A stretch of 64,000 bases of DNA from an uncultured Ohtaekwangia sp. (GTDB lineage Bacteria; Bacteroidota; Bacteroidia; Cytophagales; Cyclobacteriaceae): assembly GCA_964409415.1 (NCBI GenBank), contig CAYPDF010000004.1, forward strand, positions 144,946 to 208,945. Reading direction: 5' to 3'. How positions within the stretch are numbered: the stretch's first letter is position 1; every line of letters starts with the position of its first letter. The position numbers were made by a program, and so were the translations under genes. The notes under the pieces are model-generated. The model was given only the letters and a program-made list of their open reading frames with translations, did not search any database and was not told the DNA's origin. Below, piece after piece: positions 4,667 to 21,137 of the stretch.

Positions 4667-5059
4667 GGGGCCGACCGGTTTTGACAGGATGTGTGAGTGC
4701 GTATGCCAGCATGCAGGCTCATGGGATGAGAGCCTTAAAAGATAGTTCTAAAACCATACTTGGCGAGTCTAACTACGCCTTGGCTGCTTAATCTGACGAT
4801 ACGTTAGATGAGTTTGTCTCCGATAAGATCGGAGAGGCCAACATCGCTCACTGCCTTTGTTCTGCAGGAGGTGAATATGCGGTGTCGTTTGTCGGAACTG
4901 CTCTGTGTGAGGTTACTAATCACGGCTAAGACATAGTGACTACGGAGAAGTTGAGGTTGTTGACTGCCTTGCTCCTCCCGACAATCAAAGTTAACTAAGC
5001 ATGTAGAATCTACGCGTTTATCTTCTCTGGACCAGAGTTCGATTCTCTGCGGCTCCACC
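4667..5059 (+). ncRNA. ssrA: tmRNA; tag peptide (A)GESNYALAA* encoded at 4762-4791
   Basis: 5' GGGGCCGACCGGTTTTGACAG; 3' T-arm CAGAG-TTCGATT-CTCTG and acceptor CGGCTCCACC; internal reading frame ending YALAA-TAA. Confidence 0.96.
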
Positions 5060-5061
5060 TT

Positions 5062-5975: not shown

Positions 5976-6047
5976 GGCCCCGTATTTCAATGGATAGAAT
6001 TTCAGATTCCGATTCTGAAGATGCAGGTTCGATTCCTGCCGGGGTCA
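5976..6047 (+). tRNA. tRNA-Arg (anticodon CCG)
   Basis: Acceptor GGCCCCG/CGGGGTC-A; anticodon arm TCAGA-TTCCGAT-TCTGA; T arm GCAGG-TTCGATT-CCTGC; CCA not encoded. Confidence 0.95.
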
Positions 6048-7607: not shown

Positions 7608-8395
7608 TTTCCGTTGTAGGTATTCCATTCGATGAGTTCTCTTCATTTATGCGTGGTCCAGCTTTGGCGCCTCCAAAAATCAGGGAAGCGTATCATTCCG
7701 ATTCTGCTAATTACTTTACTGAAGATATTATCAATCTTAAAGATCATACTGGATGGAGAGATGAAGGAGACCTTACTCTGCCCGAAGGGATTGAAGCAAT
7801 AAATGTAATTAAGGAATCTATCACTACATTACTTAACAAGTCCGAGAAAGTTTTGTCACTAGGCGGAGATCATTCTGTTACGTATCCAATAGTAAAGGCT
7901 TTTGCGGAGAAATTTGGGAAACTAACCATACTGCATTTGGATGCACATGGGGACTTGTATGATAATTTTGAGGGGAATAAATATTCGCACGCTTGCCCCT
8001 TTGCACGAATCATGGAAGAAGGCTTAGCCAGCAGACTGATTCAGGTGGGAATACGTACGATGAACACGCATCAGGCCGAACAGGTGAAGCGTTTTGGTGT
8101 GGAAGTCATTGAAATGAAAGACTGGAATAGAGATATCCGATTTCAATTTGAGGGCCCTGTTTATATTTCTTTAGATTTGGATGCCGTGGATCCGGCTTTT
8201 GCACCTGGCTTATCCCATTACGAACCGGGGGGCTTTACTTCACGCGAACTTTTATCCATTATTCAGAATATACGGGGAAATGTGGTGGGTGCAGATTTGG
8301 TAGAGTTGAATCCAATTCGGGACCAGTCTGGTATTACTGCAATGCTGGCAGCTAAATTATATAAAGAGTTGCTCCAACTGCTTTTGAAAAACTAA
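7604..8395 (+). CDS. speB: Agmatinase / ureohydrolase family enzyme
   Basis: GGDHS, HLDAHGD, SHACPF, SLDLDAVDPAFAPG, ELNP; ATGA overlap with the upstream stop. Substrate is inferred. Confidence 0.8.
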   Translation: MISVVGIPFDEFSSFMRGPALAPPKIREAYHSDSANYFTEDIINLKDHTGWRDEGDLTLPEGIEAINVIKESITTLLNKSEKVLSLGGDHSVTYPIVKAFAEKFGKLTILHLDAHGDLYDNFEGNKYSHACPFARIMEEGLASRLIQVGIRTMNTHQAEQVKRFGVEVIEMKDWNRDIRFQFEGPVYISLDLDAVDPAFAPGLSHYEPGGFTSRELLSIIQNIRGNVVGADLVELNPIRDQSGITAMLAAKLYKELLQLLLKN

Positions 8396-8406
8396 TTTAG
8401 GCTGTT

Positions 8407-8536
8407 ATGTCCAAAGACCTTTTTTTCAACATGGTCTGCAGTTCAGAACTTCATTAAAAAACATGGCTATAACCCAGTTGACGAATTAATTGAGGAGATT
8501 AAACCACTTTGGCGAAAAGAAAGGGAATCAGTTTAT
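8407..8536 (+). pseudogene. Internally deleted relic of a class I SAM-dependent methyltransferase
   Basis: ATG 8407 MSKDLF joined at a T7 run (frame change) to STWSAVQNFIKKHGYNPVDELIEEIKPLW; these resemble the extreme N- and C-terminal segments of a Bacteroidota methyltransferase family. Confidence 0.55.
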
Positions 8537-8721
8537 CCCAAAATTGTCATTAGTAATGACAATTTTGCCCTCCGGGTGACGATTCCTGACGATTTTCGTC
8601 AGGAATATCAGGATTAACCCTGATATTGAAAATGAAACCAAAGCTTACTTTAATAAAATATCTCTATGTGTTTCATTTTCAATCATCAGCACGTAGTGCA
8701 AAAAAGTCTAATGACTTTTTT
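8535..8721 (+). repeat. Structured non-coding element, copy A (candidate ncRNA or non-autonomous mobile element)
   Basis: Aligns end to end with the reverse complement of 20883-21105; multiple hairpins. Confidence 0.8.
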
Positions 8722-8770
8722 GGGTTTATTTTCCAGTATTTTTAAGACTTGGTCGCGTAAATAAAAGGCA

Positions 8771-20882: not shown

Positions 20883-21105
20883 AGTCATTTAACTTTTTTG
20901 CACAAAGTACTGACGATTTGAAAATGAAATACTTGCAGCTGCATTATTGAAGTAAGTTTTCCTTTCATTTTGAATGTCAGGTCAATGACGCTTCGGTCAT
21001 GATCCTGATCCTAACATCAGGAGTTAATCCTGGCATTCCTGGCGGTTTCGACAGGAATCGTCATCCGAAGGACAAAATTGTCATTCCTAATGACAATTTT
21101 GGGAT
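20883..21105 (-). repeat. Structured non-coding element, copy B (with ~40 nt insertion of two extra hairpins)
   Basis: Reverse complement aligns with 8535-8721; ends ~13 nt before the radC ATG. Confidence 0.8.
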
Positions 21106-21137
21106 TAAAAGTCAAATATTTGGATTTTTGGGGCAAT

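Follow-up and report, generated by a model that had tools for sequence, protein, structure and literature searches.

The question raised by this locus is whether a strongly folding segment, seen at two places in the window (the whole 64,000-nucleotide stretch of Ohtaekwangia sp. DNA that was analysed), is a structured RNA, a leader of the downstream gene, or a piece of mobile DNA. The first-pass annotation offered both a conserved multi-hairpin ncRNA or cis-leader and a dispersed non-autonomous element mobilised in trans. The second proposal is supported by TIRs, a site-specific 5-bp duplication, empty sites, and matching ends on IS1380 elements. The element is a MITE: it is small, has no transposase gene, carries TIRs and a target duplication, occurs as dispersed copies, and has TIRs in common with autonomous IS. 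Based on sequence comparison, we give a probability of roughly 0.88 to its being transposed in trans by an IS1380-clade DDE enzyme into WTWAW-type sites. The features of the two copies in the window are listed in Table 1.

Table 1. Features of copy A and copy B, with positions in the window
Feature	Position	Strand	Evidence or remark
Left target site duplication TTTAT	8532..8536	+	Repeated at 8725-8729; single at the empty site in 5/5 relatives
Copy A, complete 188-bp MITE, short form	8537..8724	+	Three other copies 99% identical
Left TIR, 17 bp	8537..8553	+	0-2 mismatches to the ends of IS1380 elements L145, L233, L235, L338
Hairpin 1: TIR and inverted copy of its core motif	8539..8567	+	Folding; IS left ends carry the same inverted motif
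Hairpin 2: small GC stem, GGA triloop on minus strand	8567..8577	-	
Hairpin 3: TGAC/RTCA base, one bulged G, variable stem	8577..8610	+	9/13 pairs with double changes; bulge G in 43/47
Central GG(A/G)-TTAA-CCC, axis of the two-fold design	8611..8620	.	Long-form 41-nt insert sits here
Hairpin 4: mirror of hairpin 3, bulged C, long variable loop	8620..8689	+	6/17 pairs with double changes; bulge C in 42/47
Hairpin 5: mirror of hairpin 2, C(GTA)G triloop	8689..8699	+	GNA loop in 32/48 scored elements
Hairpin 6: mirror of hairpin 1	8700..8721	+	Weak terminator-like score
Right TIR, 17 bp	8708..8724	-	Identical to one end of IS1380 elements L117, L119, L193
Right target site duplication TTTAT	8725..8729	+	Matches 8532-8536
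Host DNA earlier counted as the end of copy B	20883..20892	-	Shares AATGAC(T) with the TIR; present at relatives' empty site
Copy B, long form, right TIR missing	20893..21103	-	Between rpsT and radC
Two-hairpin insert of the long form, 41 nt	20982..21022	-	Copy B against A alignment; other long-form copies
Left flank of copy B, TTAAT	21104..21108	-	Empty site is TTAAA in 5/9 relatives

Both copies were found where they had been reported, they have no ORF in common (none of at least 80 aa lies over copy A), and shuffle z-scores bore out their strong folding (-11.4 as DNA and -8.9 as RNA for copy A; -5.1 and -3.6 for copy B). The boundaries needed correction, as copy A had been drawn at 8535..8721 and its true ends are 8537-8724, with TTTAT on both sides. 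Its 5' start is CCCAAAATTGTCATTAG and its 3' end is the complement of CCCAAAAAAGTCATTAG, and the two TIRs match at 15 of 17 bases. The two copies do not align along their full length as had been described, because B has a 41-nt insert. The "..ATGACT" at which B appeared to end is host DNA that six of the nine aligned relatives carry at the empty site, so the AGTT/GACT change read as a G-U wobble is actually a junction with that host DNA. B has lost its right TIR, and the simplest account of the loss would be slippage between the AATGAC of that TIR and an identical stretch of host DNA. The remaining paired changes that had been pointed out (the AGT/AGG loop, CCC-TCC-GGG to TCC-TTC-GGA, CTGAT/ATCAG to CTGAC/GTCAG, and GCAC to GTAC) are all in the sequence. 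Elsewhere in the window, 4667-5060 is a tmRNA and 5976-6047 a tRNA. Around 8395-8500, genomes G380, G427, G341, and G425 have ~0.6 kb extra between the agmatinase gene and the copy A site, and G373 is without it, as is this genome.

The element had been described as present twice; a profile search found 32 non-overlapping matches in this genome (E<1e-3), 23 of them full-length and 9 partial. The short and long forms span 188-229 bp, inside the range of about 50-400 bp expected of a MITE, and four copies here are 99-100% identical. Identical 5-bp flanks were observed in 33/51 full copies from this and other genomes, against 14.6 expected and a maximum of 24 in 10,000 permutations of the right flanks, with automatic boundary slips scored as misses. 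Among 96 elements with two intact TIRs, a set that partly overlaps the 51, flanks were identical in 64 and represented eight different 5-mers. Comparing orthologous loci, a check proposed with the initial description, revealed empty sites for both copies. At the copy A site, all five closest relatives have a single TTTAT with nothing inserted; at the copy B site, the element is absent from each of the best 9 of 177 genus genomes searched with B's region, 6 of which align through the junction. The reciprocal case was also seen: G341 has a copy (L304) where the corresponding site of this genome is empty. Sites common to several species hold differently truncated copies, one of them a 17-bp TIR remnant, which indicates that old insertions decay. 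The C7 copy's site is intergenic DNA in relatives, too diverged for the junction to be read, and public contigs at copy A showed neither an empty site nor a circle.

Single mismatches between flanks fell at position 1 or 5 in 11 of 15 cases (p 0.009 against uniform). For B and L304, where the empty alleles are known, the left flank copy reads T in place of the host's A or C. In piggyBac, donor flank bases are carried over to the new site; by analogy, such carry-over would give mismatches at these positions, though swapped flanks or misassembly would too, and we take the pattern as a hint.

Several individual copies depart from the standard form or setting. A 33-bp minimal element (G000:C8:44407-44439 and L109:226-261) is one hairpin made of the left and right TIRs with TTAAT on both sides, and a tandem pair with a 208-bp period, a diverged relative of the element, lies between divergent genes (G000:C16:34984-35400, L002). 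Half-elements (L009 in G012; L089 and L106 in G168) end at the central GGG-TTAA-CCC. ISEcp1 uses imperfect IRR sites, and these halves may similarly move alone with the centre as a substitute end. The copy at G000:C4:1021-1209 (compared with L298 and L299) occupies a site that is filled in G341 and G425 too, yet it is 99% identical to the young copy A; it is a likely donor, or else reflects gene conversion. Four copies (G000:C1:415441, C1:79757, C9:76188, and C24:31786) touch or run into the 3' end of an ORF that converges on them, and the stop codon of such an ORF can come from the T/A-rich target. In L377, L137, L374, and L092, the MITE hairpins contain further, different palindromes, and the one in L377 resembles a GIY-YIG-associated palindrome of this genome.

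Covariation, and the fact that copies A and B both lie in sense orientation before a start codon, suggested that the element might be an ncRNA or cis-regulatory leader of the host that had been copied from one locus to another. This orientation holds for A and B but is not a general rule: by crude ORF calls, of the 32 copies, those in co-directional gaps number 11 in sense and 6 in antisense orientation, 10 separate divergent genes, and 5 separate convergent ones. The neighbours named at the outset were partly upheld, with radC after B matching its profile over the cut-off, while the gene after A can be called only an amidohydrolase, its best NCBIfam match being under the cut-off. Because neighbours are unrelated and orientations mixed, the element is not a leader. 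Truncation at shared sites and the lack of a one-strand G-U excess (see below) also speak against a conserved ncRNA or cis-leader. In line with the annotation, which recognised no known family, Rfam gave no match at gathering score over either copy and none at E<=1 in three loci. With both sites empty in the relatives examined, and with TIRs and a duplication at hand, duplication of a leader is largely refuted, and we find it scarcely credible.

We identified candidate partners through a GTDB exact scan for flank plus TIR, which returned 114 loci from 16/64 parts, or an estimated ~480 stretches overall. Of the 80 titles listed, most belong to Bacteroidota or Ignavibacteria, a few to Nitrospirota, and some are likely chance matches; the titled records in which the hairpin form occurs include, among the matches listed, members of Cyclobacteriaceae, Saprospiraceae, and unclassified Bacteroidetes. 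An internal transposase ORF groups nine of the loci, and all three ORFs scanned exceed the IS1380 cut-offs (NF033539 at 262-272 bits against 180, and also PF13701). Elements of ~1.46 kb that encode IS1380 transposases are thus bounded by the ends and 5-bp duplication seen in the MITE. L145 (1475 bp) and L193 (1462 bp) both have two TIRs and identical 5-bp flanks; across IS-length elements, identical flanks were seen in just 12/28. One end of L117, L119, and L193 equals the MITE right TIR at 17/17 bases, and L338, an IS from the same genus, has 2 mismatches per TIR. The partners' left ends carry a further inverted copy of the CTAATGAC motif, suggesting that hairpin 1 is a pair of binding motifs. 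Their single DDE transposase is ~430-450 aa long, and six of its acidic positions are conserved at 95% or more across 20 homologues. The L145 transposase is ~29% identical to its best Klebsiella plasmid matches and 44% to an Aliarcobacter plasmid IS1380, with no named IS among the 120 matches listed. From these shared ends, IS1380 elements are likely the mobiliser of the MITE. The scan also returned many unrelated 148-399 bp elements with the same TIRs in Ignavibacteria, Marinilabiliales-type, and Nitrospirota records (L123-L224), and the interior z was <=-5 in 8 of 20 folded.

Against an IS1380 mobiliser, the transposase appears to be absent here and in the five closest relatives, although four copies are nearly identical. 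This assembly, a draft like those of the relatives, has no match to PF01609, PF13701, PF13751, PF00665, or the L145 protein, and a six-frame search with a custom HMM of 20 transposases gave a best E of 3.5. Multi-copy IS often fail to assemble in drafts; no TIR was found at the contig ends. Beyond these genomes, 35/177 in the genus match NF033539 (17 exceed the cut-off), and 47/301 in the family match the L145 protein. The TIR pattern, allowing 2 mismatches, occurs in 82/177 genus genomes, with 45 matches here and 0 in the reversed control, and single matches elsewhere are near background.

Several other candidates were set aside. An apparent autonomous copy at C1:307184-308646 encloses an MltG-like host gene by its ORF reading, not a transposase. 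Viral carriage was dropped, as 43 viral-contig matches to an internal 18-mer were seemingly chance, none with element ends, and the TIR pattern had 0 matches. None of 26 metagenome loci with the central motif was a hairpin-ended IS; at one of them, a transposase fragment lies at a distance of 1.4 kb. Integron attC sites and IS200/IS605 ends were dropped because of the site-specific 5-bp duplication.

The missing transposase leaves room for the ends to have been borrowed from IS1380 and the spread now to depend on a hairpin-reading enzyme, a RAYT-like HUH or GIY-YIG protein, in the manner of REPINs. The genome has 2 Y1 and 8 GIY-YIG matches (as well as 7 tyrosine-recombinase loci), the hairpins have a conserved bulge, and the 41-nt insert of the long form has a 14-nt core in common with a repeat behind a GIY-YIG gene. 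However, the site-specific 5-bp duplication and intact IS1380-type TIRs argue against such an enzyme, the repeats are different ones at both Y1 loci and at three GIY-YIG loci (both Y1 loci and five GIY-YIG regions having been read), and no protein family is found beside more than 4 of 52 loci, so we consider it highly unlikely. This last count also answers the suggested check for a mobility gene beside the copies: no family recurs beyond that number, and a weak GIY-YIG-like ORF does lie ~150 bp from the C10 copy, which we judged coincidental. Identity with REP/REPIN sequences was rejected, with 2/2 Y1 loci lacking the element and no GTAG/CGTC tag.

The genes named here have repeats of their own. 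The two RAYT-like Y1 genes (G000:C14:1-900 and C18:14700-15500) are each flanked by their own short palindromic repeats. Small GIY-YIG genes lie directly behind tRNA-Leu, -Arg, and -Phe (G000:C2:183300-184300, C10:113300-113750, and C2:215200-215800; L033-L035), at loci with duplicated tRNA fragments and short palindromes, and they would represent a separate tRNA-targeting mobile unit. The exact 14-nt core belongs to the two-hairpin repeat behind the tRNA-Phe gene's GIY-YIG neighbour (G000:C2:215540-215600, L035), the only exact match outside MITE copies.

The interior of the element has a two-fold design. When the right half is reverse-complemented, it shows the same arrangement as the left: a TIR hairpin, a small GC hairpin, and a TGAC-based stem with one bulged base. 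The halves meet at GG(A/G)-TTAA-CCC. The interior matched none of 63 IS-bearing loci (blastn, E<1e-3), so an origin as an internal-deletion derivative of a known IS is not shown, and the true parent may be unsampled; against 20 transposases, it gave one 18-aa chance-level match. In the right small hairpin, the 32 GNA loops among 48 scored (65 examined) include all four N, and none was on the other strand; the left small hairpin has GNA on one or the other strand in 23/29 scored, these loop counts, like the mismatch counts below, being not fully independent of kinship. Loops also appear flipped between copies (AGG/CCT, TTT/AAA, and TTC/GAA). Among GCNNNGC fragments, according to one study, only GNA loops form a very stable DNA mini-hairpin, and the RNA counterparts are much weaker (PMC13037366).

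The compensatory changes noted between A and B reflect real covariation. Across 20 chosen diverse copies, both partners have changed in 23/57 pairs, and pairing is kept in 92% of cells (99.4% in hairpin 4), with the structure drawn from copy A and kinship inflating such counts; 0/500 shuffles reach this, and slid controls gave 7-14 pairs. The pattern points to DNA-level symmetry rather than to RNA. An RNA acting on one strand is expected to favour G-U over A-C, and parsimony over 47 copies (51 rows minus 2 poorly aligned and 2 duplicates) gave 45 G-T against 51 A-C origins (p 0.61). The bias is opposite in the two halves (23:40 left, 22:11 right; Fisher p 0.006), which could also be explained by arm-specific constraint. 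Neither a one-strand G-U preference nor a fixed genomic context, both expected of a structured RNA, was found. A repeat may pass a covariation test without being RNA. As one study reports, template switching can repair stems and so mimic compensatory change (PMC8794818), and covariation alone is therefore no proof of selection. Template switching would not obviously preserve bulges or GNA loops. A second study reportedly takes up template switching and stem repair in the same vein.

It is possible that the element arose as a MITE and that its hairpins are kept mainly by RNA-level selection after co-transcription, through termination, RNase processing, or mRNA stability, as has been reported for other bacterial MITEs. 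The RNA folds strongly, hairpin 6 is terminator-like, 21/32 copies have a same-direction gene on the 3' side, one RNA-library contig spans a long-form copy (a DNA origin being possible), and MITEs are described as affecting neighbouring mRNAs via secondary structure (PMC3733652). Yet there is no overall G-U excess, the mirror design and triloops suit DNA, orientation in co-directional gaps is mixed, and copies are truncated at shared sites, and we regard this explanation as unlikely on balance. We favour DNA-level folding of the interior, through template switching and some selection.

Under IS1380-driven transposition with DNA-level folding, the transposase would bind CTAATGAC-type motifs at each end, cut at the terminal GGG, and insert the element at a 5-bp WTWAW-type target. 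The enzyme would be supplied by an IS since lost, transient, or unassembled. The interior would consist of two half-units in inverted orientation. Template switching, and probably also selection for a hairpin or cruciform fold, would preserve the pairing of their stems in the DNA, with no RNA function involved. Copies would then decay through short deletions, as in copy B. A further proposal, speculative and rather unlikely, is that IS1380 transposition passes through a single-stranded or cruciform step, and that mirror hairpin cassettes, each a bulged stem and a C(GNA)G mini-hairpin beside a TIR, are read as structure by the transposase or the host replication machinery. This would let the MITE transpose more than its parent does and survive across Bacteroidota in the intervals between one autonomous IS and the next.

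Compared with known systems, the element resembles the IS1380 family (NF033539, PF13701; ISEcp1, IS1247, ISPme1) in its short TIRs and 5-bp duplication; IS1247 has 16/13-bp IR and a 5-bp DR (PMC3281130), and ISEcp1 a 14-bp IR and a 5-bp TSD (PMC12589106). In contrast to that family, it encodes nothing and has no transposase of its own. Other bacterial MITEs are likewise small, gene-less, and intergenic, with IS-family TIRs, direct repeats, and stem-loop folding. The TIRs of MITEPye1 match IS1182 (PMC11578231), Porphyromonas gingivalis BrickBuilt, MITE293, and MITE700 are linked to IS5 (PMC4596501), and Neisseria CREE/NEMIS, ERIC, and RUP are listed as bacterial MITEs (PMC3733652). BrickBuilt also has no transposase remnant. 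Unlike these, the present element has IS1380-type ends, and its interior is a mirror arrangement of six hairpins that conserves bulges and GNA triloops and covaries across many genera. REPINs and REP doublets, moved by RAYT, share inverted-dimer hairpin units dispersed between genes, but the MITE has true TIRs with a 5-bp duplication, its ends lack the tag, and the RAYT-like loci here carry other repeats. PiggyBac, for which IS1380 has been used as an outgroup (PMC10813416 and PMC13416829), has short TIRs starting with CCC and a T/A-rich TTAA target that the MITE's resembles, whereas the MITE's target is 5-bp and degenerate, not strict TTAA, and its host is bacterial. We found no IS1380-derived MITE in the literature on IS1380 MITEs and Bacteroidetes MITEs, and the available text of PMC9330008, PMC11578231, PMC3542288, PMC3281130, PMC3733652, and PMC4596501 describes none; supplementary MITE tables, ISfinder, and subscription reviews could hold one.

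The element is thus a new family of a known kind, with an unexplained DNA-hairpin architecture. As a MITE it is ordinary, and the family defined by the TIR pattern is wide. What deserves most attention is the interior: should selection act on the mirror hairpins and DNA-type triloops, these would be informative on how the IS1380 transposase handles DNA. A 188-bp substrate with natural variants (the 33-bp minimal form, the halves, and the long form) makes the role of the interior testable. If the transposase or replication machinery does read the hairpins as structure, the element would serve as a minimal, ready-made substrate on which to study the mechanism of a family that includes ISEcp1 and is a bacterial outgroup of piggyBac.
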